Under the pieces are notes generated by a model that saw only the letters and a list, made by a program, of their open reading frames with translations, was not told the origin of the DNA and searched no databases. A program made the translations under genes and the position numbers. A stretch of DNA of 64,000 nt from Rhodospirillales bacterium (lineage in GTDB: Bacteria > Pseudomonadota > Alphaproteobacteria > CACIAM-22H2), in the NCBI GenBank assembly GCA_016794005.1, contig JAEUKY010000332.1:5029-69028 (forward strand). The letters are read 5' to 3'. Below are positions 8,437 to 27,198 of the stretch, in pieces. The first letter of the stretch is position 1. Every line of letters starts with the position of its first letter.

Positions 8437-8936
8437 GCGGCTGGTTCGTCGTCCATACCCAGCCTTCTTCGGAACTGAGGGCGGAGGCCAATCTCCGCCG
8501 CCAGGGCTACGAGACCTATCTGCCCCTATACCGGCGGCGTCGCTCGCACGCCCGGCGCATCGAATTCGTCGATCGGCCGCTGTTTCCCCGTTACCTATTC
8601 GTCCGCTTCGATCCGTCGGCCGACCGCTGGCGCCCGATCCTCGGAACGTTCGGTGTCTGCGGGCTGGTGCGGTTCGGTGACGTTCCGGTCCCGGTTCCGG
8701 CAGGGATCGTCGATGCCCTGCGCGCCAGCGAAGCGGCGCGGACGTTCGACGATCCGGTCTCGCCGATGCGCAATCTCGGCGTCGGCGCGCAGGTCCGCGT
8801 CATCGCTGGCCCCTTTGCCGATCTGGTCGGCAAGTTCAAGGCTCTCGCAGACATGGAGCGGGTCGTCGTCCTGCTCGACCTGCTGGGGCGCGAAGTATCC
8901 GTCCGTCTGTCCGAGAGGGCGGTCGCGGTGGCCTAG
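8433..8936 (+). CDS. NusG-paralog transcription antiterminator (RfaH/NusG-SP-like)
   Basis: The GTG start overlaps the upstream TGA (GTGA). The N-terminus is NGN-like (WFVVHTQPSSELRAEANLRRQGYETYLPL...RPLFPRYLFVRF) and the C-terminus is KOW-like (GAQVRVIAGPFADLVGKF). Length is 167 aa. Confidence 0.7.
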   Translation: MSGWFVVHTQPSSELRAEANLRRQGYETYLPLYRRRRSHARRIEFVDRPLFPRYLFVRFDPSADRWRPILGTFGVCGLVRFGDVPVPVPAGIVDALRASEAARTFDDPVSPMRNLGVGAQVRVIAGPFADLVGKFKALADMERVVVLLDLLGREVSVRLSERAVAVA

Positions 8937-9072: not shown

Positions 9073-10197
9073 GTGCAGTTCATCGACCTTCAGTCCCAGC
9101 GCGCGCGTCTGGGTACCGCTCTCGAGGACGCGATCCTGCGCGTCGTGCGCAGCGGCCAGTACATTCTCGGTCCCGAAGTCGCCACGCTCGAGCGTCAACT
9201 CGAAGCATTCTGCGGTGCGCGTCACGCGCTGACCGTCGCCAACGGCACCGATGCGCTTGCGCTCGCGTTGATGGCGTTCGGTGTGAAGGCCGGCGACGCC
9301 GTACTTGTCCCGTCGTTCACCTTCGCGGCGACCGGCGAAGTCGTCGTCTGGTTCGGCGCGACGCCGATCTTCGTCGACTGCCTGCCGGACACCTTCAACA
9401 TCGATCCGGCCAGCATCGAAGCGGGCATCGCGACCGCGAAGCGGCTCGGCCTGCGGCCCATCGGCGTCATCCCGGTCGATCTTTTCGGACTGCCGGCGGA
9501 TTACGACGCGATCGAAGCGATCTGCGCTGCGAACGCCATGTGGATTCTTGCCGATACCGCGCAGGGCTTCGGTGCTACCTACAAGGGACGGCGCACCGGC
9601 TCGATCGGACGGGTCGCGGCGACGTCGTTCTTTCCGGCGAAGCCGCTCGGCTGCTACGGCGACGGCGGCGCCATCTTCTTCGAAGACGATGCGCTGCTCG
9701 AACCACTCCTCTCGCTCCGCGTGCACGGCCAGGGCGTCGATCGCTATGACAACGTCCGGATCGGCATGAACGGCCGAATGGACACAATCCAGGCGGCCGT
9801 CCTGATCGAGAAGCTCAAGATCTTCCCGGACGAAATCGCCGCGCGCAACCGGATCGCGGAGCGCTATTCCGCAGCGCTTGAAAAGCACGTGATCGTTCCG
9901 CGCATACCGACCGGCCTGACGAGCGTCTGGGCCCAGTACACGATCCGCGTGCCTGACGGAAGGCGCGATGCGGTTGCCGCGAAACTCAAGGAGGCGGGTA
10001 TCCCGTCTGCGATCTACTACGTCAAGCCGATGCACAGGCAGACCGCGTACTCGGAATATCCGGTCGCCGCGAACGGGTTGCCGGTAAGCGACGTGCTCGC
10101 AGGCGAGGTGTTGAGCCTGCCGATGCATCCGTATCTGTCCGAAGCCGATCAGGATCGCATCGCGTCGACCGTGCGCGCGGCGCTCGAGGCGCGATAG
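9073..10197 (+). CDS. DegT/DnrJ/EryC1-family PLP-dependent sugar aminotransferase, WbpE-like
   Basis: MQFIDLQSQ...GQYILGPEVATLERQLEAFCGARHALTVANGTDAL and SFFPAKPLGCYGDGGAIF closely resemble WbpE-type 3-oxo-sugar aminotransferases. The start codon is GTG, with GGAAAG about 10 nt upstream. Confidence 0.85.
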   Translation: MQFIDLQSQRARLGTALEDAILRVVRSGQYILGPEVATLERQLEAFCGARHALTVANGTDALALALMAFGVKAGDAVLVPSFTFAATGEVVVWFGATPIFVDCLPDTFNIDPASIEAGIATAKRLGLRPIGVIPVDLFGLPADYDAIEAICAANAMWILADTAQGFGATYKGRRTGSIGRVAATSFFPAKPLGCYGDGGAIFFEDDALLEPLLSLRVHGQGVDRYDNVRIGMNGRMDTIQAAVLIEKLKIFPDEIAARNRIAERYSAALEKHVIVPRIPTGLTSVWAQYTIRVPDGRRDAVAAKLKEAGIPSAIYYVKPMHRQTAYSEYPVAANGLPVSDVLAGEVLSLPMHPYLSEADQDRIASTVRAALEAR

Positions 10198-10208: not shown

Positions 10209-11252
10209 ATGACCGCACTTACAAGGCCGTTCGACAAGCCGTTCCACGATCTGCGCGGCGCGTCGATCCTGATAACCGGCGGTACGGGTTCGTTCGGCCG
10301 CGCGTTCGTCGCGCGCCTACTCGCCCTTCCGACGCCGCCCGATCGTATCGTGATCTTCTCGCGCGACGAGCAGAAGCAGGAAACGATGGCGCGCGAATGG
10401 TCGGGGCGCCCCGACCTGTACGACCGCCTGCGCTTCTTCATCGGCGATGTCCGCGACGCCCAGCGGCTCGAACTCGCCATGCGCGGGGTCGACCACGTGG
10501 TCCACGCGGCGGCCCTCAAGATCGTGCCGATCGCCGAGTACAACCCGTTCGAATGCGTCCTCACGAATGTCCATGGTGCCGAGAACGTCGTCAAGGCGGC
10601 GCTGCGCAACCAGGTGCGCAAGGTGATCGCGCTGTCGACCGACAAGGCCGCCAATCCAGCCAATCTCTACGGTGCGACGAAGCTGGCGTCCGACAAGATC
10701 ATGGTCGCGGCGAACAATCTGTCCGGCGATCTGGGCACGCAGTTCTCGGTCGTCCGGTACGGCAACGTCATCGGCAGCCGCGGTTCCGTCGTGCCGCTCT
10801 TCCGCTCGCTGATCGCGTCGGGCGCCAAGAGCTTGCCGATCACCGACCCGCGCATGACGCGCTTCCTCATCACACTCGAGCAGGGTGTCGCGTTCGTGCT
10901 GTCCAGTTTCGGAACGATGCGGGGCGGCGAGATCTTCGTGCCGAGGATTCCGTCGATGAAGATGGTCGATCTGGCGCGCGCACTGGCCCCTGGTCTGCCG
11001 CACGAGAATGTCGGCATCCGTCCCGGCGAGAAGCTGCACGAAGTGATGATCACCGAGGACGATGCCCGCATGACGCTCTCATTGGGCGACCGCTTTGCGA
11101 TCTGCCCGGCAAACCGGAACTGGACCGATGCGCACCTGCGCGCGCTCGGTGGAATGCCGGTCGACGAAATGTTCCGCTATGGCTCGGACAACAACGACGA
11201 ATGGCTCGATGCGGCCGGCCTCCTCGCGATCGTCGGAGGGTCGAAACCTTGA
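10209..11252 (+). CDS. pseB: UDP-N-acetylglucosamine 4,6-dehydratase (inverting), PseB/FlaA1 type
   Basis: ILITGGTGSFG, FFIGDVRD, VVHAAALKIVPIAEYNPFECVLTNVHGAENV and STDKAANPANLYGATKLASDK are typical of PseB. Confidence 0.9.
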   Translation: MTALTRPFDKPFHDLRGASILITGGTGSFGRAFVARLLALPTPPDRIVIFSRDEQKQETMAREWSGRPDLYDRLRFFIGDVRDAQRLELAMRGVDHVVHAAALKIVPIAEYNPFECVLTNVHGAENVVKAALRNQVRKVIALSTDKAANPANLYGATKLASDKIMVAANNLSGDLGTQFSVVRYGNVIGSRGSVVPLFRSLIASGAKSLPITDPRMTRFLITLEQGVAFVLSSFGTMRGGEIFVPRIPSMKMVDLARALAPGLPHENVGIRPGEKLHEVMITEDDARMTLSLGDRFAICPANRNWTDAHLRALGGMPVDEMFRYGSDNNDEWLDAAGLLAIVGGSKP

Positions 11253-12433
11253 GTGCAGGCATCCTTCCCTACGGCCGGCAGACGATCGAGGACGACGACG
11301 TCGCGGCGATCGCGGCCGCGATGCGGGGCGACTTCCTCACGACCGGGCCGACCGTCGCGAAGTTCGAAGCCGCCTTCGCGACGGCGACCGGTGCGGCACA
11401 TGCCGTCGCGTCGAATTCCGGAACCGCAGCGCTCCATCTGGCGGCACTCGCTCTCGATCTCGGTCCCGGGGATGCGGCCATCGTTCCGAGCGTCACGTTC
11501 CTTGCGACCGCGAATGCGGTGCGCATGACGGGCGCCGACGTCGCGTTCGCCGATGTCGATCCAGAGACCGGCCTGCTGCGGCCGGCCGACATGCTCGATG
11601 CGCTTGCGCGCGCCCGCGCGCGCGGCTGGCGCGTGCGGGCAGCGTTCCCGGTCCATCTCAACGGCCGGATCTGCGACATGCCGGCCCTTGCCGAGGCCGC
11701 ACGGCCGCACGGCATGGCACTCGTCGAGGATGCGTGCCATGCGCTCGGTGCTGCCGATGTCGGGGCCTGCCGGCACTCCTTCGCCGCAGTGTTCTCGACC
11801 CATGCGGTCAAGGCGATCGCGACGGGCGAGGGTGGTGTCACGACGACGGCCGACCGGCAGGCCGCACGCAGGATGGCAGCGCTTCGCTCGCACGGCATGG
11901 AGCGTGACCCGACGGCTTTCGTCGACCGTGCGGCGGCCTTCGACGACAACGTGCCAAACCCCTGGTACTACGAGATGCCGGAAATCGGCTGGAACTACCG
12001 ACTTCCGGATGTGCTCTGCGCGCTGGGCCTGAGCCAGTTGCCTAAGCTCGCGCGCTTCCAGGCGCGCCGGCAAGCGATCGCGGCACTGTACGATCGGCTG
12101 CTGGCACCGCTCGCACCGATGCTGCGCCCGGTGCCGCGCGAAGGGGCGGCGCACGGCCTGCACCTCTTCGCCGTGCTCGTCGACTTCGCGGCACTCGGAA
12201 CCACGCGCCGCCGGTTCGTGGAAGCGCTGCGCGCGGACGGCATCGGCACGCAGGTCCATTACAAGCCCGTCCATACGCAGCCCTATTACGTCGAGCGCTA
12301 CGGCACGCTGACCCTGCCGGGTGCGGACGCATACTACGCGCGCTGTCTGTCGATCCCGTTCTATCCGACACTGTCGGACGCGGATGTCGAGCGCGTGGCC
12401 AACTCGCTCGCCCGGCTCGTGGCGGCCCGGTGA
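11249..12433 (+). CDS. pseC: UDP-4-amino-4,6-dideoxy-N-acetyl-beta-L-altrosamine transaminase, PseC type
   Basis: A TTG start overlaps the pseB TGA. ILPYGRQTIEDDDVAAI...LTTGPTVAKFEAAFA...SNSGTAALHLA...HAVKAIATGEGG follows the PseC N-terminal and Lys-region pattern. The upstream part of ORF 10397..12433 overlaps pseB and was trimmed. Confidence 0.85.
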   Translation: MSAGILPYGRQTIEDDDVAAIAAAMRGDFLTTGPTVAKFEAAFATATGAAHAVASNSGTAALHLAALALDLGPGDAAIVPSVTFLATANAVRMTGADVAFADVDPETGLLRPADMLDALARARARGWRVRAAFPVHLNGRICDMPALAEAARPHGMALVEDACHALGAADVGACRHSFAAVFSTHAVKAIATGEGGVTTTADRQAARRMAALRSHGMERDPTAFVDRAAAFDDNVPNPWYYEMPEIGWNYRLPDVLCALGLSQLPKLARFQARRQAIAALYDRLLAPLAPMLRPVPREGAAHGLHLFAVLVDFAALGTTRRRFVEALRADGIGTQVHYKPVHTQPYYVERYGTLTLPGADAYYARCLSIPFYPTLSDADVERVANSLARLVAAR

Positions 12434-13152
12434 AGACCGCCGTCGTCGTCCAGGCAAGGGTCGGGTCGAGCCGACTGCCCGGTAAGGTCCTGAAGCCGCT
12501 CGGTCCGAGAACCGTGCTGGAAGAAGTGCTGCGCCGCTGCGCCGCCGTGCCGGGTGCGGGCATCGTCGTCTGCGCGATACCCGACGGCGCCGCCGCCGAA
12601 CCCATAGCACGTCTCGCGCAGGCCGCCGGTGCTGTCGTCGTGCGTGGTCCTGAAGCCGACGTGCGCGCGCGCTACTTGCTTGCGGCAGATGCCGTCGGTG
12701 CCGACATTGTCCTGCGCGTGACGTCCGACTGCCCGTTGATCGATCCGGAGCTTTGTGCGGCGGTCCTAGCGACGCGCGCGGCGGCGGGTGCCGATTACTG
12801 CGCCAACAACATGCCGCCGTCGTTCCCGCACGGACTCGACTGCGAGGCCTTCACGACGCCGGCACTGCGACGAGCGGTTGCGTCCGACGGATCCGATGAC
12901 GATCGCGAACACGTCACTCCGTGGCTGCGCCGTTCCGAAGGAATCTCGCGCGCAGCGCTCGTCGGTCCCGGCGGCGCGTTCGCCGGACAGCGCTGGACGC
13001 TTGACTGGCCCGAAGATCTCGATTTCCTGCGCGCCGCAGTCGATCTCGCCGGCGAACGCGATCACTTCGTCCCGTGGTTCGATCTCGCGGCGCGCCTCGC
13101 CGCACGCCCGGACCTGCTTGCGATCAATTCCGTGCGCCAGCAGGCGCGCTGA
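12430..13152 (+). CDS. SpsF/FlmC-type cytidylyltransferase-fold protein (candidate CMP-nonulosonate synthetase)
   Basis: The GTG start overlaps the pseC TGA. VVVQARVGSSRLPGKVLKPL and RVTSDCPLIDPE match the SpsF-like nucleotidyltransferase pattern. Confidence 0.7.
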   Translation: MKTAVVVQARVGSSRLPGKVLKPLGPRTVLEEVLRRCAAVPGAGIVVCAIPDGAAAEPIARLAQAAGAVVVRGPEADVRARYLLAADAVGADIVLRVTSDCPLIDPELCAAVLATRAAAGADYCANNMPPSFPHGLDCEAFTTPALRRAVASDGSDDDREHVTPWLRRSEGISRAALVGPGGAFAGQRWTLDWPEDLDFLRAAVDLAGERDHFVPWFDLAARLAARPDLLAINSVRQQAR

Positions 13153-13165
13153 TTTACGACTTTCC

Positions 13166-13171
13166 AAGGAG
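13166..13171 (+). promoter_or_regulatory. Consensus Shine-Dalgarno AAGGAG 8 nt upstream of the radical SAM gene start
   Basis: Read directly. It lies in the largest intergenic gap (27 nt) of the 23-gene run. Confidence 0.6.
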
Positions 13172-13179
13172 TCCACCCG

Positions 13180-14274
13180 ATGGCCAAACAAGCCGAATCT
13201 GAGTCCGCTGTGGTCGACACGCCCGATCGTCATGTGCCGGAATACATGGCCTCACACGGCCAGGAGACGGTCGAGCAGAAGCTGCTGCGCAACCAGGTGC
13301 CGAAGTTTGGACAGAAATTCGCAGACTATCGCGCGGAGTATTTGCGCAGCCTGAACTACGACAAGGAGGATTACGTCGCAGGCTTCCCGATCACCCTCAA
13401 CATCGAGCTGGTCAACCGCTGCAATCTCTCCTGTATCATGTGCTACACGATCAATCACAAGGGCGAGAAGCACACGCTGTCGCTCGATCAGATGCGAGGG
13501 ATGGCCAAAGAAATCAAGGCCCACAATCTTCCCGCGATGATCGTCGGGTTGGGTTCGGAAGCGCTGCTCTACAAGGATTTCAAGAACGTCCTCGACATCT
13601 GCCTCGAAGCGGGCGTGATGGACCTGATCCTGTACACCAACGGTGTGCTGCTGACGCGCGAAACGTCGGAGTACCTCGTCCGTTCCGGCATTTCGCGCAT
13701 CCACGTCTCTCTCGACGCCGCGACACCGGAAACCTACGTCAAGATTCGCGGTAAGCCGGAACTCGACCGCATCGAGAAGAATATCGAGACGTTTCTCGAA
13801 GTGCGCAAGTCGCTGGGCTCGGAGTTGCCGATTCTGCGCGTCGCGTTCTGCGTCCAAGCGGAAAACCTCCACGAGCGCGAGGCTTTCCGAAAGAAATGGG
13901 AAGGTAAGGCTGATCGCGTCGACTTCCAGCTCATGGCCCCCGAAAAGCACGTCGACGATGTCAAGAATGCGACGCCTGACCTCGCCAAGAAGGTCGGCTT
14001 TTTCCACAAGGAGCTGCTCGACAAGCCGTGGTGCTCGATGCCGTTCAACTCGCTCAGTGTCTGGGCGGACGGTGGAGTGACGCCGTGCTGCTCGTTCATG
14101 GGCAAGAACCTGACGCTCGGCAACATCAAGGAAAGCTCCCTCGAGGAGATCTGGCGCGGCGAGAAGATTGAAAAACTCCGCAACGAGTTCCGCACTGGGA
14201 AGCTGAATCCGTCGTGCGAGCTCTGCATCTCGGGTCGCGATCTCGACTCTTTCCGCAAGCAGCTCGAGGACTGA
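13180..14274 (+). CDS. Radical SAM enzyme with a C-terminal SPASM/twitch-like Cys-rich domain
   Basis: It has a CNLSCIMC (C-x3-C-x2-C) cluster motif after ITLNIELVNR. The C-terminal Cys cluster is WCSMPF...TPCCSF...NPSCELC. G+C is visibly lower than in neighbours (hand counts of 34/60 and 32/60 on lines 13441 and 13501). Confidence 0.85.
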   Translation: MAKQAESESAVVDTPDRHVPEYMASHGQETVEQKLLRNQVPKFGQKFADYRAEYLRSLNYDKEDYVAGFPITLNIELVNRCNLSCIMCYTINHKGEKHTLSLDQMRGMAKEIKAHNLPAMIVGLGSEALLYKDFKNVLDICLEAGVMDLILYTNGVLLTRETSEYLVRSGISRIHVSLDAATPETYVKIRGKPELDRIEKNIETFLEVRKSLGSELPILRVAFCVQAENLHEREAFRKKWEGKADRVDFQLMAPEKHVDDVKNATPDLAKKVGFFHKELLDKPWCSMPFNSLSVWADGGVTPCCSFMGKNLTLGNIKESSLEEIWRGEKIEKLRNEFRTGKLNPSCELCISGRDLDSFRKQLED

Positions 14275-14278
14275 CGCG

Positions 14279-15955
14279 TTGGATCTCGGTCGCGAAATCC
14301 TCCGGGTACGGCGCTTCGCGGGCGAGACGCTCGACCGTTTGCGCGCACTGGGGCCGGCCGCGCGTGCTCGCGCGGCGCGCGTGCAGCGCCTGCGCGATGC
14401 TGGTGACGGACTGATGCGTACACTGTCCGACGGCGCCGTACCCGGCGGCCGCGCGGCGGTCGCCGGGCGCGTGCTTGTGGACGGCACCTGGGACAACGCG
14501 AATTACTGGTTCCGCTTCGCCATGGTCCGCCGCGCGCTCGGCCTCTCTGGCGTCACGATGACCGGTCTCGTCGGCGCGTTCCGCCGTGGGGAAGTCGCTG
14601 CGACGTTCGAGCGTTTTGGCGTGGACGCGCGGATTGATCTGCAGGCGCTATCCCGCATTGAGCCACGCCACCGCACCGCCGCGCGTACGCTACTCGCGCG
14701 CGTGCGAACGGCCGAGGATATCCTGCGGGCCGAGCTTCCTGGTGGGATGCCTGGAGAAATCTTCTATGACGGCGTGTTGAAGCGGCAACGCCGTGGGACC
14801 GCCGATCTCGCCGATCCACTGCTTCCCGACCATGTCGCCGAACAGTTCGCGAGTATAGATGCCGCCGTCCGCGTCCTGGACGAAGTCCGGCCAGATCTCC
14901 TTCTGCTGACACACGGACTCAATTTCTCGTATGGATCGCTTGCATGGGAAGGTATCCGGCGCGGCATCCCGGTGCTGCTGCTCTATGGCGACTTCGGGAC
15001 GACGCGCTTCGTGCGCCTGTTCTCGCGTGGTGACCTGTTCGTCTTCCCGTCACGTCCGAGCCGAGCGGAACTTGCAGGTCTTGCACCGGCAACGCGCGTG
15101 GCGCTGGAGCGTGTGGGTGCCGAGCAGCTCGAGCTTCGCCGCCGCGGCAGGACGAACGATATCGGCGGGCGATACGCCTATCGCGCTGGCGGCAGCGCAC
15201 TGTCGAAGGCCGAGATATGTCGGCGCTACGGATGGGATCCGGCGAAGCCGATCGTGGGCGTCTATGCCTCGAACCCGTTCGATTATCCGCATTGCACGGG
15301 CATGTACCATTTTCGCGACTTCGTCGAATGGAACCGCGAGACGGTCGCCGCTGCGGCACGCAATCCGCATGCGAACTTCCTCTGCAAGCCGCACCCGATC
15401 GACCGCCGATACGGCCTCAAGTACGGGGAAGGTCTTGCCGATGCGGTGATGGCTGTCGCGTCGGCGCATGTCCGGTTGGCGGACGAGGCGTGGTCGGGTG
15501 CTGAGCTGATGCGCTGCCTCGACGGCGCGGTCACGCATCACGGCAGCGTCGGGTTCGAAGCCGCCGCGATGGGCATTCCGGTCATGACCACGGATTGCGC
15601 CTGGTACGACGAGGTCGGCTTCGTCGCGCGTCCGGCCAGCAAGGCCGCGTATCTCGACAAGCTCGCTAGCGAATGGTGGCGCGACTGGCCGACGCAGGAA
15701 GCGATCTCGCTCGCGAATCTTGCCGCTGGGCTTTATTACGGCGTGCCCGATTGGCAGGGGGGCTACATTTTCCGCGACGACTCGGATCAGGATGCGATCT
15801 ACGAGACGCTGCCAGCCTTCATCGCGGATCACGGGGTTGCGATCGAACGCGAGATCGCGACGATCCGCGACTGGTACGATGCGGCGCATCCGTTCTTCCA
15901 CATGTTCAAGATGTTTCGCAGCAGCGGCTTTGGCATCGGCAATGCGACGGATTGA
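14279..15955 (+). CDS. Hypothetical protein; putative GT-B HP-motif transferase (KpsS/KpsC capsule-synthesis-like)
   Basis: 558-aa ORF with a TTG start at 14279 (an ATG alternative lies at 14414). NFLCKPHPIDR (KPHP at 15386-15397) is followed by VTHHGSVGFEAAAMGIPVMTTDCAWYDEVGFV. This resembles the HP motif and nucleotide-binding helix of capsule ulosonic-acid transferases. Assignment is by eye. Confidence 0.4.
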   Translation: MDLGREILRVRRFAGETLDRLRALGPAARARAARVQRLRDAGDGLMRTLSDGAVPGGRAAVAGRVLVDGTWDNANYWFRFAMVRRALGLSGVTMTGLVGAFRRGEVAATFERFGVDARIDLQALSRIEPRHRTAARTLLARVRTAEDILRAELPGGMPGEIFYDGVLKRQRRGTADLADPLLPDHVAEQFASIDAAVRVLDEVRPDLLLLTHGLNFSYGSLAWEGIRRGIPVLLLYGDFGTTRFVRLFSRGDLFVFPSRPSRAELAGLAPATRVALERVGAEQLELRRRGRTNDIGGRYAYRAGGSALSKAEICRRYGWDPAKPIVGVYASNPFDYPHCTGMYHFRDFVEWNRETVAAAARNPHANFLCKPHPIDRRYGLKYGEGLADAVMAVASAHVRLADEAWSGAELMRCLDGAVTHHGSVGFEAAAMGIPVMTTDCAWYDEVGFVARPASKAAYLDKLASEWWRDWPTQEAISLANLAAGLYYGVPDWQGGYIFRDDSDQDAIYETLPAFIADHGVAIEREIATIRDWYDAAHPFFHMFKMFRSSGFGIGNATD

Positions 15956-15968
15956 GGCCGACACTGCG

Positions 15969-16976
15969 ATGATCCCCGCATCCGCCAGCATTGCCCGTCT
16001 CCATGGTCCGGGCGATCTTCGTTTCGAAGACGAAGCGCTGCCTGCCGCGCCGGGGACGGGAGAGATCCTTGCGCGGACGCTCTGGTCCACGATCTCGCCC
16101 GGGACGGAGCTTGCGGCGTTCCAGGGTCTGCCGCCCCTGCGGCCTGGCCGCGTCTACCCGCGCCTCGTCGGCTACTGCAACGTCGCAGAGATTCTCGCGA
16201 TCGGCGTTGGCGTCGAAAGGCTTGTACCGGGTATGCGCGTGTTGACATGGCAGAGCCATCGTAGCGCTTTCATCGTGCCGGTCGCGGACGTACTGGCCAT
16301 CCTGCCGCCGGATGCTGATGCACGCGCAGCCAGTGCGGCCTATCTTTTCCATCTTGGTCTCGATGCCGTCCACCGGACCGGCATATCGCTTGGCCACAGG
16401 GTCGCGGTGCTTGGGATGGGGGTGCTCGGGCTTGGCGCTGCGGCGATGGCAGCACGGGCGGGCGCCGATGTTTCCGCGATCACCGCACGGCCGGAGATCG
16501 CAGGGATTGCGCGCGCGATGGGTGCCTGTGCCGTCGTCGGACCGGACGAAGCCGTCGCCGCGGCGCAGGCGACGGATGTCGGCGGTTTCGACAATGTCGT
16601 TTCGACGAGCAACCGGTGGCCGGACTGGGAGCTCGCCTTGCGTCTGGCGCGCAAAGGCGGAACGGTTTCTGTTCTCGGGTTTCCCGGCAGGGGCGAGCCG
16701 CCGTCGCCGTCCAATCCGCTTGCCTCGCAGTATTTCTACGACAAGCAGCTTCGCCTCGTCGCCTGCGGTCAGCCGGTCGAGCGCGATGCGCCGCCGGACG
16801 AGATTCGGTTCACGCTCAAACGCAACATGGCGGATATCGTCGGGCGCATCGCGCGCGGCGACCTGCCGGCCGGCCGCCTACTGACGGGCGAGTATCCCGC
16901 CGCGTCGCTTGCCGACGCATATCGGGCCCTTGCAGCGCGCCGCCCCGGCGACGTGACCTCCGTGCTCGCATGGTGA
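15969..16976 (+). CDS. Medium-chain dehydrogenase/reductase (zinc-type alcohol dehydrogenase-like) family oxidoreductase
   Basis: ISPGTELAAF, GYCNVAEIL and the Rossmann motif VAVLGMGVLGLGAAAMA are present. The start is taken at ATG 15969 (GAGG about 11 nt upstream). ATG 15942, which overlaps the upstream gene, is also possible. Confidence 0.6.
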   Translation: MIPASASIARLHGPGDLRFEDEALPAAPGTGEILARTLWSTISPGTELAAFQGLPPLRPGRVYPRLVGYCNVAEILAIGVGVERLVPGMRVLTWQSHRSAFIVPVADVLAILPPDADARAASAAYLFHLGLDAVHRTGISLGHRVAVLGMGVLGLGAAAMAARAGADVSAITARPEIAGIARAMGACAVVGPDEAVAAAQATDVGGFDNVVSTSNRWPDWELALRLARKGGTVSVLGFPGRGEPPSPSNPLASQYFYDKQLRLVACGQPVERDAPPDEIRFTLKRNMADIVGRIARGDLPAGRLLTGEYPAASLADAYRALAARRPGDVTSVLAW

Positions 16977-18052
16977 ATGCCGGATTGACGGCGGTCGTCG
17001 TCGGCTGCGGGGCCATGGGTGCATTCACGCGGCCTGGCACGCGCAGCGCGCTGCCACCGGGCTGGCTACCGCTCGCACACGCCGAAGCCGTCGTCGCGAC
17101 ACCCGGCCTCGTACTCATCGGCGTATGCGACAGCGATGCCGCCGTGTGCGAACGGGCATCGGCGCATTACGGCGTACCGGCCTTCGCCGACCACCGGGCG
17201 ATGCTGGCAGAACTGCGGCCTGCGATCGCATGCGTGGCGACGCGCACCGAGCCGCGGGTACGGACGCTCGTCGATTGTGCGAAGGCGGGCGTCAGGGGCA
17301 TGCATGCCGAGAAGCCGCTCAGCCGCTCGATGGAAGATGCACGGTGCGTCGCTGCGGCACTTGTGCAGGCAGGTGCTTCGTTCACCTACGGCGCGCTTCG
17401 TCGCTACCATGCAACCTATCTGCGCGCGGCGGCTCTGGTCGCCGACGGCGCCATCGGCGATCTGCGACAAATCGTCGTCGGGTTCGGGCGCCGGACAGCG
17501 ATGTGGACGCATGCACACTCGCTCGACGCGATGCTGTTCTTCGCCGGTGCGCCGGTGCGCATCGTGCAGGCGCGGATCGCCGTCGATCCCGGGTCCGTCT
17601 GCGAGACCGACGGCATTCCGACGATCGATGCCGATCCGACAATCGAGACCGGCTATGTCGCCTTCGAGAACGGCGTGAGCGGCCAGATCACGCAGCTTGA
17701 CGGATTCGACATCCTGCTTGCCGGCAGCTCCGGCACGCTGCGGATCGCGGCTGACGGCACGCGGATCGATCTTGACCGGACAGGCCCATCGACTGGGGGC
17801 TATTTCACCGCTACGACGAGCGAACCGGCCCTCTCGAGTCAACCGGGCGGAACGGCGCTTGCGCTTGGCCGGCTGTGCGGTTTCGTCGCGTCCGGCAAGC
17901 CGGACCAGACCGCACTCGATGCCGCAGTCGATGGCCAGCGCGCATTGTTCGCGATGCTTCTTTCGGGTTTGCGTGGCGGAATCGAGGTCGCACCCGGCGA
18001 CGTTCCCGACACGATGACCGTTACCGGACGGTCCGGCAACCTGTTCGCGTGA
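16970..18052 (+). CDS. Gfo/Idh/MocA family NAD(P)-dependent sugar oxidoreductase
   Basis: The ATG overlaps the upstream stop (ATGGTGA). It has the N-terminal Rossmann motif AVVVGCGAMGAF and the MHAEKPLS (EKP) motif. The upstream part of ORF 16616..18052 was trimmed. Confidence 0.7.
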   Translation: MVNAGLTAVVVGCGAMGAFTRPGTRSALPPGWLPLAHAEAVVATPGLVLIGVCDSDAAVCERASAHYGVPAFADHRAMLAELRPAIACVATRTEPRVRTLVDCAKAGVRGMHAEKPLSRSMEDARCVAAALVQAGASFTYGALRRYHATYLRAAALVADGAIGDLRQIVVGFGRRTAMWTHAHSLDAMLFFAGAPVRIVQARIAVDPGSVCETDGIPTIDADPTIETGYVAFENGVSGQITQLDGFDILLAGSSGTLRIAADGTRIDLDRTGPSTGGYFTATTSEPALSSQPGGTALALGRLCGFVASGKPDQTALDAAVDGQRALFAMLLSGLRGGIEVAPGDVPDTMTVTGRSGNLFA

Positions 18053-18068: not shown

Positions 18069-19478
18069 ATGAGCGTGACGCTCCATTGCGACGCAGGCCC
18101 GGGGATCGGGCTCGGGCACGTGTTGCGCAGTGCCGCACTCGGGGCGGAGTTCGTCCGCACCGGACGTCGTGCGCGCTTGCGCGTGCCGGTCGGTGCGGCG
18201 GTCGGTGTGCCCGATCGAGTGCGGCGTGTCCTACCTGTCGAAGAAGAGGGAATCCCCGCGCCAGCTACCGATATAGCAGTCATCGATTCCTACCGACCGA
18301 CGATGCACACGGTCGACGGGAAGGCGCGTCTGATCGCACTCCACGACGGAGATGGACCCTTGCCAGTCGCTGGCTTTCTGGTGAATGCCGCTGCCACCGA
18401 AAGCGACTATGCCAGCCGTACGACGGCTTCGTGCCGGCTTCTTCTCGGACCCCGCTACGCGTCAGTCGACGCAGCATTCGCCATCCGGCGTGCCGGAGCT
18501 CTGGCCGCGCGCACTTCGTGCGAGGTGCGAAGGGTCCTCGTTTCGTTCGGCGGCGACGATGCGGCCAACGCCACCGGACGCTCGCTCGACGCGCTCGAGG
18601 GGCGATCGGTCGAGATCGACGTCGCGCTCGGATCGGGCGCACGTCACGTTCGCGATATCGCCGCCCGCGCTTCGGCGCGCGTTCGTGTTCATATCGATAC
18701 GCCCGAGATGCCCGCCTTGATGGCGGATGCGGACATCGCGGTCGGAGCGGCTGGTTCGACGGCATGGGAGCGTTGCACTTTGGGACTGCCGACATTGATC
18801 GCGCGCCTTGCGGCAAACCAGAATGGCGTTGCGGACATGCTCGTTGGCGCCGGTGCCGCGGCCGACATCCGGTCGGTCGATGCCGGCTTCGAAACGCGTC
18901 TTGCCGCGGCATTCGACCGCGTGGCAGGAGATCGCGCGCTGCTGGTCTCGATGGCGGCGCAGGCGGCCGCCCTGTGCGATGGGCGCGGGACCAAGCGGAT
19001 CGTTCTTGCCGCCGTCGGCGACGAGACGGATCGGATGGGCCGCCGGATCCGCTTGCGTGCCGTCGAAGCCGCCGATGCGGCGTGGTTTCTCAATCTCCAG
19101 TCGCGGCCGGAGACACGCCGCTACGCACGCAATCCGGCCGTTCCGACGCCCGACGAACATCGGCTGTGGTTTGCGCGGATGCTCGCCAACGCCGCACATA
19201 CGCTGGCGGTAGTCGAGTGTGCGGACGTTCCGGCGGGCTTCGTGCGTCTCGATCCGACTTCTGCGGAAGAGATGCGCTTTGAAGTCTCGATCGCCGTTGA
19301 TCCGGCGTTTCACGGCAAGGGCGTCGGTTCGACCGCATTGCGACTGACGCGCGCCTGCGCGCGCGATGCGGTGCTGGAAGCCGAAGTGCATGAAGACAAT
19401 CGCGCATCCCGAGCGCTGTTCGCAGGCTGCGGCTACCGACCCACCGGGCCGGGCCGCCTGGAAAGCAGGCCCACATGA
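18069..19478 (+). CDS. pseG: Bifunctional PseG (UDP-2,4-diacetamido-2,4,6-trideoxy-beta-L-altropyranose hydrolase) / GNAT N-acetyltransferase (PseH-like) fusion
   Basis: The N-terminus VTLHCDAGPGIGLGHVLRSAALGAEF is PseG-like. The C-terminal ~150 aa (IRLRAVEAADAAWFLNLQ...VDPAFHGKGVGSTAL...NRASRALFAGCGY) are GNAT-like. Confidence 0.8.
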   Translation: MSVTLHCDAGPGIGLGHVLRSAALGAEFVRTGRRARLRVPVGAAVGVPDRVRRVLPVEEEGIPAPATDIAVIDSYRPTMHTVDGKARLIALHDGDGPLPVAGFLVNAAATESDYASRTTASCRLLLGPRYASVDAAFAIRRAGALAARTSCEVRRVLVSFGGDDAANATGRSLDALEGRSVEIDVALGSGARHVRDIAARASARVRVHIDTPEMPALMADADIAVGAAGSTAWERCTLGLPTLIARLAANQNGVADMLVGAGAAADIRSVDAGFETRLAAAFDRVAGDRALLVSMAAQAAALCDGRGTKRIVLAAVGDETDRMGRRIRLRAVEAADAAWFLNLQSRPETRRYARNPAVPTPDEHRLWFARMLANAAHTLAVVECADVPAGFVRLDPTSAEEMRFEVSIAVDPAFHGKGVGSTALRLTRACARDAVLEAEVHEDNRASRALFAGCGYRPTGPGRLESRPT

Positions 19479-20518
19479 CCTTCGCCATCAATGGACGCCG
19501 GATCGGCCCCGAGGCGCCGCCCTACGTCATCGCCGAGCTTTCGGGCAACCACAACGGTTCGCTCGACCGCGCGATCGCTCTGCTCGATGCGGCGCACGAG
19601 GCGGGTGCGGACGCGGTCAAGCTGCAGACTTATACCGCCGACACGCTGACGATCGATCATGACGGACCCGATTTCACCGTGCGCGGTGGCTTGTGGGACG
19701 GATCCACGCTCTACCAGCTCTACCGTCAGGCCCATACGCCGTGGGAATGGCACGAAGCGCTGTTCGCGCGCGGGCGCGAACTCGGCATCACCGTATTCTC
19801 GACGCCGTTCGATGCGACCGCGATCGATCTGCTCGAGCGTCTCGGGGCACCGGCCTACAAGATCGCTTCGTTCGAGGCCGTCGACCTTCCGCTCATCCGC
19901 CGCGTCGCATGCTGCGGCAAGCCGATGATCGTCTCGACCGGAATCAGCGACCTCGCCGAGATCGCCGCTGCGGTCGAAGCAGCCCGCAGCGCAGGCGCCA
20001 CTGATCTGGCGCTGCTGCATTGCGTGAGCGCCTATCCAGCACCACCAGAAGACATGAATCTGCGGACAATAGCGCATCTCGGTGCGACATTTGGCGCCGT
20101 GCCGGGCCTTTCGGACCATACGCTGGGCACGGCGGTCACCGTCGCGGCGGTGGCGCTGGGTGCCTGCGTGATCGAGAAGCACGTCACGCTTCGCAGGGCC
20201 GACGGCGGACCGGATTCCGCATTCTCGCTCGAACCCGAAGAATTCGCAGCACTGGTACGCGACGTGCGGACGGCGCACGCGGCCCTGGGGCGCGTCTCCT
20301 ATGAGCGCGAGCCCAGCGAACGCGGCATGGCGACGTTCCGACGTTCGCTCTATGCGATCGCCGACATCGCGGCAGGCGAGATTCTCACGGAAGCGAATGT
20401 CCGCTCGATCCGTCCGGGTTTTGGCCTGGCGCCCAAGCACTTCGACGCGGTTGTCGGCCGGCGCGCACGCCGGTCGATCGCGCGCGGGACCGCACTCGCG
20501 TGGAGCCTGATCGAGTGA
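19475..20518 (+). CDS. pseI: Pseudaminic acid synthase
   Basis: The start overlaps the upstream stop (ATGA). YVIAELSGNHNGSLDRAIALLDAAHEAGADAVKLQTYTADTLT, KIASFE and LLHCVSAYPAPPEDMNLRTI are typical of PseI/NeuB-family synthases. Confidence 0.9.
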   Translation: MTFAINGRRIGPEAPPYVIAELSGNHNGSLDRAIALLDAAHEAGADAVKLQTYTADTLTIDHDGPDFTVRGGLWDGSTLYQLYRQAHTPWEWHEALFARGRELGITVFSTPFDATAIDLLERLGAPAYKIASFEAVDLPLIRRVACCGKPMIVSTGISDLAEIAAAVEAARSAGATDLALLHCVSAYPAPPEDMNLRTIAHLGATFGAVPGLSDHTLGTAVTVAAVALGACVIEKHVTLRRADGGPDSAFSLEPEEFAALVRDVRTAHAALGRVSYEREPSERGMATFRRSLYAIADIAAGEILTEANVRSIRPGFGLAPKHFDAVVGRRARRSIARGTALAWSLIE

Positions 20519-21246
20519 AGACGGTCGCGACCATCGAGGCGCGCATGACCTCCATGCGGTTGCCCGGCAAGGTGCTCGCCGACGCCGAGGGCGCTCCGAT
20601 GCTCTCGCGGATGATCGACCGACTCTTCCGCGTATCCGGACTCGACGGCGTTGTCGTCGCGACGACGACGAACGCAACCGATGATCCCATCGCCGCTCTC
20701 GCGTCGGAAAAGGGTGTCGGATGCTGGCGCGGCAGCGAGGACGATGTTCTCTCGCGCGTCCTCGAAGCGGCCACGGATGCCGGAGCCGACGTCATCGTCG
20801 AACTGACGGGCGACTGTCCGCTGATCGATCCGGCGATCGTGTCGCAGACGATACGCCACTACTTCTCGACGGGCGCAGATTATGTCTCGAATGTGCTGAC
20901 GCGCAGCTATCCGATCGGCATGGACACGCAGGTATTCTCGCGTCGCATCCTTGCGGACGTGGCAAGTCGTACCGATGATGCGATTGACCATGAGCATGTG
21001 AGCCTTTACATCTACCGCCATCCGGAAATCTACAGCCTTTCCGGCATTGTGGCACCCGCCGGGCTCCACCGTCCTGATGTCCGGCTCACGCTCGATACAC
21101 CCGAAGATCTGGCACTGATCCGCGCCGTGTTTGCGGCTCTGTTGCCACGCGGGATCGATTTCGGCCTTGCCGAGATACTCGCATATCTTGACGCCAATCC
21201 GGTGGTCGCCGCGCTCAACCGGAGCGTGGTGCATCGTCATGTCTGA
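20515..21246 (+). CDS. SpsF/FlmC-type cytidylyltransferase-fold protein, second copy
   Basis: The GTG start overlaps the pseI TGA. ATIEARMTSMRLPGKVL and ELTGDCPLIDPA parallel the gene at 12430. Confidence 0.7.
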   Translation: MKTVATIEARMTSMRLPGKVLADAEGAPMLSRMIDRLFRVSGLDGVVVATTTNATDDPIAALASEKGVGCWRGSEDDVLSRVLEAATDAGADVIVELTGDCPLIDPAIVSQTIRHYFSTGADYVSNVLTRSYPIGMDTQVFSRRILADVASRTDDAIDHEHVSLYIYRHPEIYSLSGIVAPAGLHRPDVRLTLDTPEDLALIRAVFAALLPRGIDFGLAEILAYLDANPVVAALNRSVVHRHV

Positions 21247-22234
21247 ACGGTTGCGTGCGATCGTGCTGGGATGCGGGCGGATCGCGGGTGGGCTCAACCG
21301 GTCGTCAGACGACGCCATGGTTCTGACGCACGCGTTAGCCTACCGCCGCAATCCGCGTTTCACGCTTGTCGCCTGTATCGAAACGGATGCGCATGTACGC
21401 GCGGATTTCGCTGCGCGCTGGGCGCTCGAGAGCGCCTATGTCTCTCTCGACGAGGCATTTGCGAACGGCGCCGTTTACGATGTCGCCAGCGTCTGCGTGC
21501 CGACGGCGGCGCACGTGGCCACACTCGATCGGCTTTTGGATATGCCCGTGCGTGCGGTTTTCGCCGAAAAGCCGCTTGGCGGCGATCCGGCGGCCGCTCG
21601 ACGGATCGTTGAGCGCTTCCGGCGGGCCGGAAAGCCGCTGGCGGTTGCCTATCTTCGGCGCTGGGATCCGGCGATGATGGCGCTGCGCGCGGAGATCGCT
21701 GAAGGGAGATGGGGCGCGTGGCGCGGCGGTGCCGCATTCTACGGCCGCGGCGTCGTCAACAACGGATCCCATGCGATCGACCTGCTGCGGTTCCTGACTG
21801 GCGAGGAGTTCCGGATCGCTGCCACAGCGGGTGCCCGTGCCGACGGCGTTCCGGACGATCCGAGCATCGATGCGATACTGGAGGCGGGCGGCGGGCAACG
21901 CGTTCATCTCGTCGCCTGCGACGGGCGCGACTACGCGTTCTTCGAGATGACACTCGCGTTCGCGCACGGCATCGTCGCGATCGAGGACGGCGGCTTACGC
22001 GTCGTACGCCGCGCGGTGGCGGCGAGCGAACATTTCTTCGGAGTTGATGTTCCCGGGGCAGGTTACGGCGCGTCCACGGGGTATGGCGACGCGTTCGTGC
22101 ATGCGCTTGACGACATCGCGGGTTGCCTCGAACACGGTGGCGAACCGAAGAGCAGCGGGGCGAGCGCGCTCGCCTCGATCGAATTGGCCTGCGCGCTGCG
22201 TGCGGCGGCAACCGAAGCGGAGTCGATCAAGTGA
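21239..22234 (+). CDS. Gfo/Idh/MocA family oxidoreductase (WbpB-like position upstream of an aminotransferase)
   Basis: The ATG overlaps the upstream gene by 8 nt. It has AIVLGCGRIAGG and VFAEKPLGG motifs. Confidence 0.7.
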   Translation: MSERLRAIVLGCGRIAGGLNRSSDDAMVLTHALAYRRNPRFTLVACIETDAHVRADFAARWALESAYVSLDEAFANGAVYDVASVCVPTAAHVATLDRLLDMPVRAVFAEKPLGGDPAAARRIVERFRRAGKPLAVAYLRRWDPAMMALRAEIAEGRWGAWRGGAAFYGRGVVNNGSHAIDLLRFLTGEEFRIAATAGARADGVPDDPSIDAILEAGGGQRVHLVACDGRDYAFFEMTLAFAHGIVAIEDGGLRVVRRAVAASEHFFGVDVPGAGYGASTGYGDAFVHALDDIAGCLEHGGEPKSSGASALASIELACALRAAATEAESIK

Positions 22235-23556
22235 GCGAACTGGCCCTCCTGGGCGGCAAGCCCGTGCGTACAGAGCCCTTTCCGGCCTACCGGTTCATCG
22301 GCGAGGAAGAGAAGGCGGCGGCTATACGAGTCCTCGACTCCGGAATCCTGTCGAGGTTTCTCGGCACATGGCATCCGGATTTCTTCGGCGGACCGGAAGT
22401 GCAGGCGTTCGAGCGGGATTGGGCAGCATCCGCAGGCGTACGGCACGGTGTCTCAATGAATTCGGCGACATCCGGCCTTTATGCCGCGGTCGGTGCCGTG
22501 GGAGCGGGCCCTGGCGACGAAGTGATCGTTTCGCCCTATACGATGATCGCGTCGGCGACGGCAGCGATCGTCTTCAATGCCGTTCCGGTCTTCGCCGACA
22601 TCGATCCGGAGACCTACACCCTCTCCGCCGAGACGATCGAAGCCCGCATCACGTCGCGCACGAAGGCGATCATCGTCGTGCATATCTTCGGCCAGTCCGC
22701 CGACATGGATCCGATCATGGCGCTGGCGCGCCGGCACGGCATCCGGGTGATCGAGGACTGTGCTCAAGCCCCCTTCGCGACCTATAAGGGCCGCTCCGTC
22801 GGGTCGTTGGGCGACATCGGCGTTTTCAGCCTCAACTACCACAAGCATATCCATACCGGCGAAGGGGCAATGTGCACGACCGATGACGACGAACTCGCAG
22901 AGCGGCTGCAACTCATCCGGAATCATGCCGAGGCGGTCGTCGAGAAGAAGGGTGTGACGAATCTCGTCAACATGGTCGGTTTCAATTTCCGGCTTGGCGA
23001 GATCGAGGCGGCGATCGGTCGCGCGCAGTTGCGCAAGGGTCCGGCACTCGTCCAGACGCGCAGGGAGAACGTGCGCTATCTCGAAGCCAAGCTTGCAGGC
23101 ATCCCGGGGCTCGCCATGCCCAAAGTCGGCTCCGGCGGCGATCACGTGTACTATGTGCATGCGCTCGACTATTCCGAGGCGACAACCGGCGTATCGCGCG
23201 ACACGTTCGTCCAAGCAGTGAAGGCCGAGCTGCCGCCGACGGGCTTGCGCGAGCACGAGGGGCCGCTTATGGGGGCTGGCTATGTGCGCCCACTATATAT
23301 GGCCCCGATGTTCCGCCAGATGGTCGGCTACGGGACGAAGCAGTGCCCGTTCCGCTGCCCACATTACGAAGGTACGCCGAACTATTCCAACGGCATCTGC
23401 CCAAACGCGGAAGCGGCGCATTTCGGTCGCGTCATCACGCACGAAATGATGCGACCGCCGATGACCCGACGCGACATCGACGATGTCGCCGCCGCGTTCC
23501 ACAAGGTTGCGGAAAACTTGCACCGCCTGTCAGATCGCGCAGCGTCGAAGGCATAG
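22231..23556 (+). CDS. DegT/DnrJ/EryC1-family PLP-dependent aminotransferase (long form)
   Basis: The GTG start overlaps the upstream TGA. LALLGGKPVR, MNSATSGLYAAV, VIEDCAQA and SLNYHKHIHTGEGA (Lys region) are present. Length is 441 aa. Confidence 0.8.
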   Translation: MSELALLGGKPVRTEPFPAYRFIGEEEKAAAIRVLDSGILSRFLGTWHPDFFGGPEVQAFERDWAASAGVRHGVSMNSATSGLYAAVGAVGAGPGDEVIVSPYTMIASATAAIVFNAVPVFADIDPETYTLSAETIEARITSRTKAIIVVHIFGQSADMDPIMALARRHGIRVIEDCAQAPFATYKGRSVGSLGDIGVFSLNYHKHIHTGEGAMCTTDDDELAERLQLIRNHAEAVVEKKGVTNLVNMVGFNFRLGEIEAAIGRAQLRKGPALVQTRRENVRYLEAKLAGIPGLAMPKVGSGGDHVYYVHALDYSEATTGVSRDTFVQAVKAELPPTGLREHEGPLMGAGYVRPLYMAPMFRQMVGYGTKQCPFRCPHYEGTPNYSNGICPNAEAAHFGRVITHEMMRPPMTRRDIDDVAAAFHKVAENLHRLSDRAASKA

Positions 23557-26041: not shown

Positions 26042-26589
26042 CCGAAGCGCCTTTCCTGTCGGGCGGCGGCGTTTGCCTGCGGCCGTTGTCTCCGTCCGAC
26101 GCTTCGCCGGCCTACCTCGCCTGGCTCAACGACGCGGAAGTCCTGCGTTGGCGAGGGCCGAAGGCGTTCCCTACTTCTGCGGCGCAACTCGGCGCGTGGC
26201 TCGATGGGCTGGCCTCGCGTGGCGATCTGGTTCTTGCGATCGAGATTGCCGAGACTGGTCGCCATGTCGGCAATATCGCGCTCAACACGATCCTTTGGCA
26301 TCACGGCACGGCGGAGTTGTCGATCATGATCGGCGCCCGCGATGCGTGGGGACGTGGAGTGGGGAGTGCGGCGATCGCGCTTGTTACCGCGCACGCATTC
26401 GATTCGATGGCGCTACGTCGCCTTTGGGCCGAATCGCCCAATCCGGCCTTCAACCGGACGGTCGAGAAGCTTGGCTGGCGCCGCGAAGGCGTCAAGCGGC
26501 AGGCATTCTTCAGCGAAGGCAAGCATCTCGACATCGAATGCTGGGGCCTGCTCGCATCCGAGTGGCGGGAACGGCGGATCTCGAAGTGA
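26038..26589 (+). CDS. GNAT family N-acetyltransferase (RimJ/RimL-like)
   Basis: The start overlaps the upstream stop (ATGA). VCLRPLSPSDASPAYLAWLND...GNIALN...WGRGVGSAAI...NPAFNRTVEKLGWRREG fits the GNAT pattern. Confidence 0.75.
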   Translation: MTEAPFLSGGGVCLRPLSPSDASPAYLAWLNDAEVLRWRGPKAFPTSAAQLGAWLDGLASRGDLVLAIEIAETGRHVGNIALNTILWHHGTAELSIMIGARDAWGRGVGSAAIALVTAHAFDSMALRRLWAESPNPAFNRTVEKLGWRREGVKRQAFFSEGKHLDIECWGLLASEWRERRISK

Positions 26590-27194: not shown

Positions 27195-27198
27195 CCGG

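Follow-up and report, generated by a model that had tools for sequence, protein, structure and literature searches.

Candidate nonulosonate-tailoring modules, including a radical SAM enzyme and a dehydrogenase-Gfo/Idh/MocA pair, in a pseudaminic acid operon of a Rhodospirillales bacterium

Exploring 64,000 nucleotides from a Rhodospirillales bacterium (GCA_016794005.1, contig JAEUKY010000332.1, positions 5,029 to 69,028; hereafter the window), we found a pseudaminic acid (Pse) operon in which five genes separate pseB-pseC from pseG/H-pseI (Table 1). They encode a cytidylyltransferase (CT1), a radical S-adenosylmethionine (SAM) enzyme (rSAM), a long protein of glycosyltransferase (GT) fold GT-B with a His-Pro (HP) motif (P558), a zinc-free medium-chain dehydrogenase/reductase (MDR) and a Gfo/Idh/MocA oxidoreductase (GFO1). 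We read the region as a Pse operon within an RfaH-controlled surface-glycan cluster that has gathered separately mobile accessory modules for nonulosonic acids (NulO): Pse would be made by the canonical enzymes, activated by CT1, epimerized by MDR and GFO1, subjected to a radical step by rSAM and transferred by P558. We assign this explanation as a whole, which draws on sequence comparison and on analogy with characterized systems, a probability of about 0.5. A modified Pse-type product is most likely because every one of these families is strongly tied to NulO loci elsewhere; in this respect the initial annotation, which had proposed a modified nonulosonate pathway, is likely to be right, while the acting stage and the product that it named are not established.

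Table 1. Genes of the Pse operon and of the surrounding cluster, in window coordinates, with profile scores and position
Feature	Coordinates	Strand	Support and position
RfaH-like (NusG-family) antiterminator	8283-8936		helix-turn-helix (HTH) protein before it; directly upstream of the DegT-pseB operon
DegT aminotransferase, extra	9073-10197	+	in the operon, before pseB; Pfam/NCBIfam
pseB, UDP-GlcNAc 4,6-dehydratase (inverting)	10209..11252	+	TIGR03589 486 bits, cutoff 407.75; Polysacc_synt_2 E 1.6e-96
pseC aminotransferase	11255..12433	+	TIGR03588 443.7 bits, cutoff 423.5
CT1, SpsF-type CTP_transf_3 cytidylyltransferase	12430..13152	+	PF02348 E 1.6e-18; pseF position
rSAM, radical SAM enzyme, one BtrN-like (Twitch) auxiliary cluster	13180..14274	+	Radical_SAM PF04055 E 7.6e-18; SPASM E 4.7e-15
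P558, divergent PF05159 (Capsule_synth) GT-B protein	14381..15955, alternative TTG start 14279	+	524-558 aa; KPHP motif
MDR dehydrogenase, Zn-free, BchC-like	15969..16976, alternative ATG start 15942	+	ADH_zinc_N E 3.8e-12; SxISPGTE motif
GFO1, Gfo/Idh/MocA oxidoreductase, MDR partner	16970..18052	+	PF01408 E 3.2e-11; EKP motif
pseG-like/GNAT (pseH-like) fusion	18069..19478	+	TIGR03590 138 bits, under cutoff 153.55; Acetyltransf_3 E 6.6e-18
pseI, pseudaminic acid synthase	19475..20518	+	TIGR03586 498.7 bits, cutoff 340.25
CT2, SpsF-type cytidylyltransferase	20500-21246	+	directly after pseI
GFO2, Gfo/Idh/MocA	~21236-22234	+	second tailoring module
DegT2 aminotransferase	~22237-23556	+	second tailoring module (20500..23556)
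U399, conserved unknown protein	23616-24542		follows DegT2
HisH/WbuZ (HisF-like)/WbuX set	26589-29173		TIGR03573 327.7 bits
Second nonulosonate module: NeuB-type synthase, NeuC, NeuA/PseF-like cytidylyltransferase	~40735-43627		NeuC: TIGR03568 334 bits, cutoff 236
NeuA/PseF-like cytidylyltransferase of that module	~42930-43627		PseF model 112 bits, cutoff 205.7; only such enzyme in the window
LptD	56621-58813		downstream of the five genes

The canonical route to cytidine monophosphate (CMP)-Pse comprises six steps, carried out by PseB, PseC, PseH, PseG, PseI and PseF. Pfam and NCBIfam searches with the proteins of the window recovered all five domain assignments of the initial annotation, each where it had placed them, and bore out its view of the flanks as canonical for PseB, PseC and PseI, which all exceed their NCBIfam equivalog cutoffs, the PseG-like/GNAT fusion staying just under that of PseG. 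PseB, PseC, PseH/G and PseI would produce Pse by the chemistry of the established pathway. The NCBIfam profiles found no PseF-type (TIGR03584) cytidylyltransferase in the Pse operon. The five genes between pseB-pseC and pseG/H-pseI are intact open reading frames (ORFs), all co-directional on the plus strand, and keep their catalytic motifs. They belong to a long co-directional operon starting at 9073, in which neighboring genes overlap by 4-7 nt or leave gaps of less than 30 nt (e.g. 12433/12430, 16976/16970 and 19478/19475), a spacing that suggests expression as a single operon. A Tagaea sp. metagenome-assembled genome (MAG; locus L006 in our numbering) carries all five genes in identical order at 63-79% amino-acid identity (63-84% with the flanking genes of the operon), indicating that the arrangement did not arise by chance.

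Comparison with further loci revealed a mosaic in place of the single five-gene insert first supposed. Three relatives of the same lineage as the window, with PseB and PseC 65-84% identical to ours, hold different gene subsets. L001 carries CT1-rSAM-P558 followed by a gene for a 443-aa methyltransferase in place of MDR-Gfo; L004 (the same locus as L087) carries P558-MDR-Gfo together with a canonical PseF-type cytidylyltransferase; and L108 reads pseB-pseC-MDR-Gfo-pseG/H-pseI-CT2-Gfo2-DegT2, without CT1, rSAM or P558. Since these loci carry separate subsets, there are at least two independently moving units, CT1 with rSAM and MDR with Gfo, and P558 is usually but not always alongside. Between pseC and the P558 orthologue of L004 (9505-9924; the same in L087) lies an ORF of 139 aa that is 39% identical to rSAM over rSAM residues 218-263, a remnant showing that this lineage has lost the CT1-rSAM unit. 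Both this remnant and the variable module content among close relatives are what one would see if the inserted genes were evolutionary passengers, decaying or redundant, and the glycan kept ordinary Pse5Ac7Ac/Am. The intact frames, conserved catalytic motifs and tight gene coupling of the window, and the order and identity held by the L006 orthologues, argue against such decay, and we consider it very improbable.

MDR and Gfo form an obligate unit of two enzymes that commonly accompanies Pse loci and is not peculiar to the window. A metagenome scan took in 80 loci, and a GFO1-type gene lies immediately downstream of MDR in 62 of the 63 that offered enough sequence. Among the 32 loci of at least 12 kb, a PseI-type synthase was present in 23, a WbuX amidotransferase in 21 and a DegT2-type aminotransferase in 20, and the order PseI-GFO2-DegT2-U399-WbuX-HisH-WbuZ-WbuX-MDR-GFO1 recurs; in most of the 80 loci it is pseI and the amidotransferase genes, and not pseC, that the pair follows. 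The MDR family has more than 600 homologues at 45-54% identity, from Verrucomicrobia to Rhizobium. Three randomly picked contexts were all Pse clusters with MDR directly upstream of a Gfo/Idh/MocA gene, and Pse clusters that carry the pair were seen in Rhizobium/Agrobacterium-group bacteria, Verrucomicrobia and Citromicrobium. MDR has the GxGxxG Rossmann motif, gave no ADH_N match and lacks the catalytic zinc ligands of zinc-dependent alcohol dehydrogenases; the ligand positions read S-x-I-S-P-G-T-E and G-Y-C, which are invariant in 30 homologues. In many metagenome loci WbuX stands immediately upstream of MDR-Gfo. The notion that an HP-motif GT-B protein follows every MDR-Gfo pair was dropped, as it holds in only ~14 of 44 loci.

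Ela and Epa are the only characterized systems known to us in which a NulO module combines two different NAD(P) oxidoreductases, and they serve as precedents here. In Acinetobacter baumannii KL49, ElaA (Gfo/Idh/MocA) and ElaC (a short-chain dehydrogenase/reductase, SDR), encoded with the CTP-transferase ElaB, epimerize C8 of CMP-Leg5,7Ac2 (Leg, legionaminic acid) via an 8-keto intermediate (PMC13656337). EpaA, which joins CTP_transf_3 to an aldo/keto reductase (AKR), and the SDR EpaB convert Pse to 8-epi-Pse (PMC12053666). The window resembles Ela in combining a cytidylyltransferase, a Gfo/Idh/MocA protein and a second NAD(P) oxidoreductase within a NulO module that adjoins its presumed cognate transferase, and would share its logic of oxidation followed by re-reduction; it differs in having a zinc-free MDR, an SpsF-type cytidylyltransferase and a Pse core where Ela has an SDR and a Leg core. 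With Epa it would share Pse as the substrate and the coupling of a CTP_transf_3 domain to two oxidoreductase activities, but Epa is a prophage-borne cytidylyltransferase-AKR fusion plus SDR, whereas here MDR and Gfo lie in a chromosomal operon. Likeness to both systems was set by family composition and not by sequence alignment. Searching the PDB sequences with GFO1 and MDR for a link to ElaA/ElaC returned generic dehydrogenases only and no Ela entry even at E <= 10. An alcohol dehydrogenase and Gfo/Idh/MocA pair with the same Pfam domains is also drawn, with no function given, in flagellin-glycosylation islands of Aeromonas (PMC7874193).

By analogy with ElaA/ElaC and EpaA/EpaB, the pair most likely acts on CMP-Pse and epimerizes it. 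GFO1 would oxidize one secondary hydroxyl (C8 or C4) and MDR would re-reduce the ketone from the opposite face, yielding an epimer. The different stereoisomer suggested at first is, in light of these precedents, a reasonable guess as far as an epimer is concerned; the joint action of all five genes on the diamino-hexose, by which it was to arise, is one possibility only.

CT1 would provide the substrate of this pair. Simpler Pse clusters (L084 and L086) carry a NeuA/PseF-type cytidylyltransferase immediately after pseC, which is the slot of CT1 here. Because CT1 takes the usual place of pseF and the Pse operon encodes no canonical PseF, it is probably the pathway's own activating enzyme, a CMP-nonulosonate synthetase converting Pse to CMP-Pse, and not an add-on, though the assignment is not secure. 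Although listed among the non-canonical genes at first, it probably has an ordinary role, activation. Neither CT1 nor CT2 matched the PseF model TIGR03584, and both gave only weak matches to KdsB models. We presume CT1 to be SpsF-type from the motif ARxxSxRLPGKVL and from the missing TIGR03584 match, not from an alignment to SpsF. Its closest solved relative in a PDB search is an uncharacterized 'cytidylyltransferase' (6OEW, E 1.5e-21). The window, L001 and L006 alone have CT1-type paralogues (phmmer score >300), and the next gene is always rSAM. SpsF of Bacillus subtilis, a putative CMP-legionaminic acid synthetase, is likewise a short CTP_transf_3 protein that replaces a NeuA/PseF-type enzyme in a NulO operon; genetic evidence alone shows it to be required for Leg transfer and dispensable for Leg synthesis, which is consistent with a CMP-activating role (PMC7439481).

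P558 is probably the nonulosonate transferase of the module and not an enzyme of the nucleotide-sugar stage, because it falls into the PF05159 superfamily and genes of this kind habitually adjoin NulO modules; it would pass the (modified) NulO onto the glycan. PF05159 includes the 3-deoxy-D-manno-octulosonate (Kdo) transferases KpsC and KpsS (GT107). P558 itself matches the family at the borderline (21.1-21.3 bits, the gathering cutoff being 20; ~90 residues covered), and 19 of 41 diverse relatives match it too, with a best E of 2.1e-7, no other family recurring among them. An exhaustive profile search placed 428 clusters of 50% identity in the P558 family at E <= 1e-30 and 2328 at E <= 1e-10, against just 25 homologues from a word-indexed search. 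These relatives are mostly 520-575 aa long and matched over their full length, and all genomic contexts inspected were NulO clusters (including L123 and L125). D130, the HP histidine H338 and E393 are invariant among relatives of 20-43% identity, and P339 is kept in at least 90%; D130, which stands in a Y-D context, and E393 may serve as the carboxylate nucleophile or base of the N-domain. The AlphaFold2 model (mean predicted local distance difference test score, pLDDT, 90.9) has two Rossmann-like domains in a GT-B fold. A Foldseek search returned GT-B proteins at probability 1.0 with TM-scores of 0.2-0.4, confirming the fold class and, given these low scores, not the family. P558 also matches KpsC weakly over the HP region, and hhalign aligned it with the PF05159-type and the HP-motif proteins that follow MDR-Gfo elsewhere at 86% and 95% probability.

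The NulO transferases KpsS1 (GT118) and Gtr59, both of PF05159, are encoded beside NulO modules (PMC4487303; PMC12887879), as is P558. Like P558, they and KpsC-KpsS have a GT-B-like fold and match PF05159, and their nucleotide-binding domain carries an HP motif; they differ in that P558 is 100-150 aa longer, is matched by the model in its C-terminal half only and forms a family of its own. Two other assignments were rejected: P558 does not replace PseG, as PseG-like genes co-occur with it in L004 and the window, and U399 is not a P558-like transferase (hhalign probability 0.2%).

The radical SAM enzyme is tied to NulO biosynthesis itself rather than to flagellin, and members of its subfamily turn up specifically in nonulosonate and flagellin-glycosylation loci across several phyla. 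This follows from the locus counts, the loci of Patescibacteria, the adjacency to pseC and a natural gene fusion. A NeuB-family synthase was found within 10 kb in 31 of 45 genome loci with an rSAM homologue of at least 32% identity and in 1 of 35 loci below that value; counting any NulO gene, the former figure rises to 35 of 45. A Maf flagellin NulO-transferase lies within 7 kb, often directly adjacent, in 21 of the 31 loci whose homologue is at least 40% identical. The family is present in non-flagellated Patescibacteria too. In one such MAG (L031, 6414-16518) the order is Capsule_synth-PseB-PseC (DegT)-rSAM-Gfo/Idh/MocA-CTP_transf_3-class III aminotransferase-DUF218-NeuB-methyltransferase, with no recognizable PseG or PseH, and this locus may encode an alternative nonulosonate route. 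rSAM immediately follows pseC in L031, L040 and L046, and in a partial Nanoarchaeota MAG protein of 525 aa (P0105) an N-terminal DegT aminotransferase is fused to an rSAM homologue (39% identity over 98% of the query). In MAGs of Rhodospirillales, Thalassospiraceae, Terasakiella and Magnetovibrio (L008-L036 and L050), rSAM homologues sit in flagellin glycosylation islands among Maf-type transferases, flagellins, TPR proteins, and acyl-activating and acyltransferase-like genes, the last two assigned by eye. A literature search found no paper in which a radical SAM enzyme is connected with the biosynthesis of Pse or Leg, and rSAM is the only clearly unprecedented part of the locus.

The cysteines C81, C85 and C88 (CxxxCxxC) are invariant in 40 rSAM homologues, and only five others are kept, C285, C303, C304, C346 and C349. 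The label SPASM, given to the enzyme at first, was an overstatement: a full SPASM domain needs seven cysteines and two [4Fe-4S] clusters, and five C-terminal cysteines make one auxiliary cluster (Twitch), even though the Pfam SPASM model matches the protein. BtrN is the top PDB match of the family profile (E 6e-17; 3.4e-10 for the Twitch domain alone). It shares with rSAM the CxxxCxxC motif and one auxiliary [4Fe-4S] site with the spacing C-x17-CC-x41-C-x2-C; both BtrN and DesII share its sugar-metabolism context, and the aminotransferase partners and fusions of rSAM echo the BtrN/BtrS and DesI/DesII pairings. Overall identity to BtrN is ~16-20%, and rSAM has an additional 70-residue N-terminal helical extension. 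Radical SAM folds top the Foldseek list of the AlphaFold2 model (pLDDT 91.5); the neighbors are generic Twitch/SPASM enzymes (SkfB, SuiB, DesII, MoaA, BlsE, BtrN and anSME) that do not discriminate between reaction types. rSAM would add a SAM-dependent radical step on an intermediate of the Pse pathway, the likeliest being oxidation at a sugar carbon in the manner of BtrN or DesII. By analogy with the DesI/DesII and BtrS/BtrN pairings, one candidate substrate is the UDP-4-amino-4,6-dideoxy sugar from PseC; neighbors such as Maf, cytidylyltransferase, NeuB and WbuX suggest another, finished or CMP-activated NulO, as an equal candidate.

Several observations weigh against the explanation of the locus given above. 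The window contains three cytidylyltransferases and two NulO synthases, for which reason CT1 is only the probable Pse-activating enzyme, and L108 seems to cope with a CT2-type enzyme alone. GFO1 has no specific kinship to any solved Gfo/Idh/MocA structure in the PDB beyond the Rossmann domain, and its partner is an MDR, whereas Ela and Epa use an SDR or AKR. The PF05159 match of P558 spans only the nucleotide-binding half, UDP-GlcNAc 2-epimerases and GT1 enzymes outrank KpsC in its Foldseek list, and an unrelated family of ~525 aa follows MDR-Gfo in 14 loci (e.g. L114, 11143-12729), whose members gave no Pfam match, lack an HP motif and do not resemble P558. The fold of rSAM is generic among Twitch/SPASM enzymes, the peptide-modifying SkfB and SuiB matching equally well. 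Lastly, in the window and in L108 MDR-Gfo lies between pseC and pseG/H, which can equally be read as action on the hexose.

This last point bears on an unlikely yet serious alternative, close to the initial annotation, in which rSAM and the oxidoreductase pair work on the nucleotide-linked hexose, after PseC and before PseH/PseG. They would alter UDP-4-amino-4,6-dideoxy-L-AltNAc, for instance by a DesI/DesII-like radical deamination or oxidation followed by ketoreduction, and PseI would then condense a different hexose to a non-Pse nonulosonate. Besides the position of the pair, the adjacency of rSAM to pseC in three loci, the DegT-rSAM fusion, the presence of the amino- and deoxy-sugar enzymes DesII and BtrN among the structural and profile matches, and the lack of a recognizable PseG or PseH in L031 agree with such a scheme. 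It is at odds with the established chemistry, by which the UDP-diamino-hexose has a single free hydroxyl, at C3, that becomes the ring oxygen of the NulO, and with the intact PseH, PseG and PseI of the window, which still require a 4-amino sugar. Moreover, rSAM homologues mostly adjoin Maf, cytidylyltransferase, NeuB or WbuX and not PseC. For MDR-Gfo, action on the 2,4-diamino-2,4,6-trideoxyhexose is the less likely stage because the pair mostly stands after pseI and the amidotransferase genes and because its Ela and Epa analogues act on CMP-NulO. For rSAM, the pseC adjacency and the P0105 fusion leave the hexose a possible stage. That the five genes are extra to the six-step Pse route is correct, but the cytidylyltransferase and the GT-B protein probably serve ordinary activation and transfer.

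Returning to the reading of the locus as a Pse operon with NulO accessory modules, we examined its surroundings. The window has a G+C content of 64-72%, and the five genes lie inside a cell-surface glycan cluster of ~50 kb. Upstream are genes for Wzy_C-like proteins, a GT4, asparagine synthase, an HTH protein and the RfaH-like antiterminator, whose arrangement upstream of DegT-pseB is also found in L001, L004 and L006. The DegT protein preceding pseB scores too low for a PseC equivalog (214 bits; cutoff 423.5) and is the most conserved gene product across the same three loci (83-84% identity). Downstream follow amidotransferase, formyltransferase, methyltransferase, GT2, ABC-transporter and further GT genes. 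The CT2-Gfo-DegT trio after pseI is conserved in L001, L005, L006, L007, L022, L028, L049 and L108, and many metagenome contigs have GFO2-DegT2(-GNAT)-U399 after PseI. The composition of CT2-GFO2-DegT2 suggests that a hydroxyl of the NulO is oxidized and then transaminated, adding a further amino group; a literature search found nothing relevant on a triamino nonulosonic sugar. HisH, WbuZ and WbuX form an N-acetyl-sugar amidotransferase system, which makes acetamidino groups. Between 37162 and 40735 lie genes for a 313-aa unknown protein with a weak PhyH-like match, a methyltransferase and a fused ABC transporter, in the order of the genes after the P558 homologue in L005. This gene content suggests ABC-transporter-dependent export of a NulO-containing glycan.

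So rich a cluster, with its extra DegT genes, WbuX/Y/Z amidotransferase, formyltransferase, methyltransferases, second NeuB/NeuC/cytidylyltransferase module and several GTs, also accommodates an explanation in which the extra enzymes leave the Pse skeleton alone and make or modify another glycan constituent, for example a further amino sugar or an N-acyl group of unusual kind, with P558 as its transferase or hydrolase. The rSAM relatives of Maf islands that lie near acyl-activating and acyltransferase-like genes (assigned by eye) would fit it. Each family, however, co-occurs with Pse or NeuB genes across distant phyla and in flagellin, lipopolysaccharide (LPS)-type and non-flagellated Patescibacteria contexts; such varied glycan contexts point to the NulO itself as the common substrate, and we hold this explanation to be improbable.

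Nonulosonic acids occur on flagella, capsules and LPS and affect immune and phage recognition. To our knowledge, the variety described so far derives from a handful of tailoring systems (Ela, Aci and Epa), almost only in Acinetobacter and Vibrio. NulO tailoring by paired oxidoreductases and PF05159-type transferases is an established kind of system, and what is new here is the families: a zinc-free MDR with Gfo, an SpsF-type cytidylyltransferase and a long HP-motif GT-B protein. The analysis shows that Pse clusters of environmental bacteria very widely contain a different, obligately paired set of oxidoreductases, zinc-free MDR plus Gfo/Idh/MocA, and that a radical SAM subfamily is bound to NulO loci over several phyla. 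A farther-reaching proposal, which we put forward tentatively and regard as doubtful, is that rSAM defines a new radical step, either an oxidation or epimerization beyond the reach of NAD enzymes or a DesII-like change of the 4-amino sugar from PseC, and that together with MDR-Gfo and CT2-Gfo-aminotransferase it leads to a chemically undescribed nonulosonate (a stereoisomer, aminated or deoxygenated) that would be found widely on the flagella and LPS of environmental bacteria such as Rhodospirillales and Patescibacteria. If new Pse isomers or derivatives are indeed made, the catalogue of bacterial sialic-acid-like sugars would be larger, the chemoenzymatic synthesis of CMP-NulO analogues would have new enzymes to draw on, and hundreds of gene families in glycan loci that are now called 'hypothetical' or 'zinc-binding dehydrogenase' could gain an annotation.

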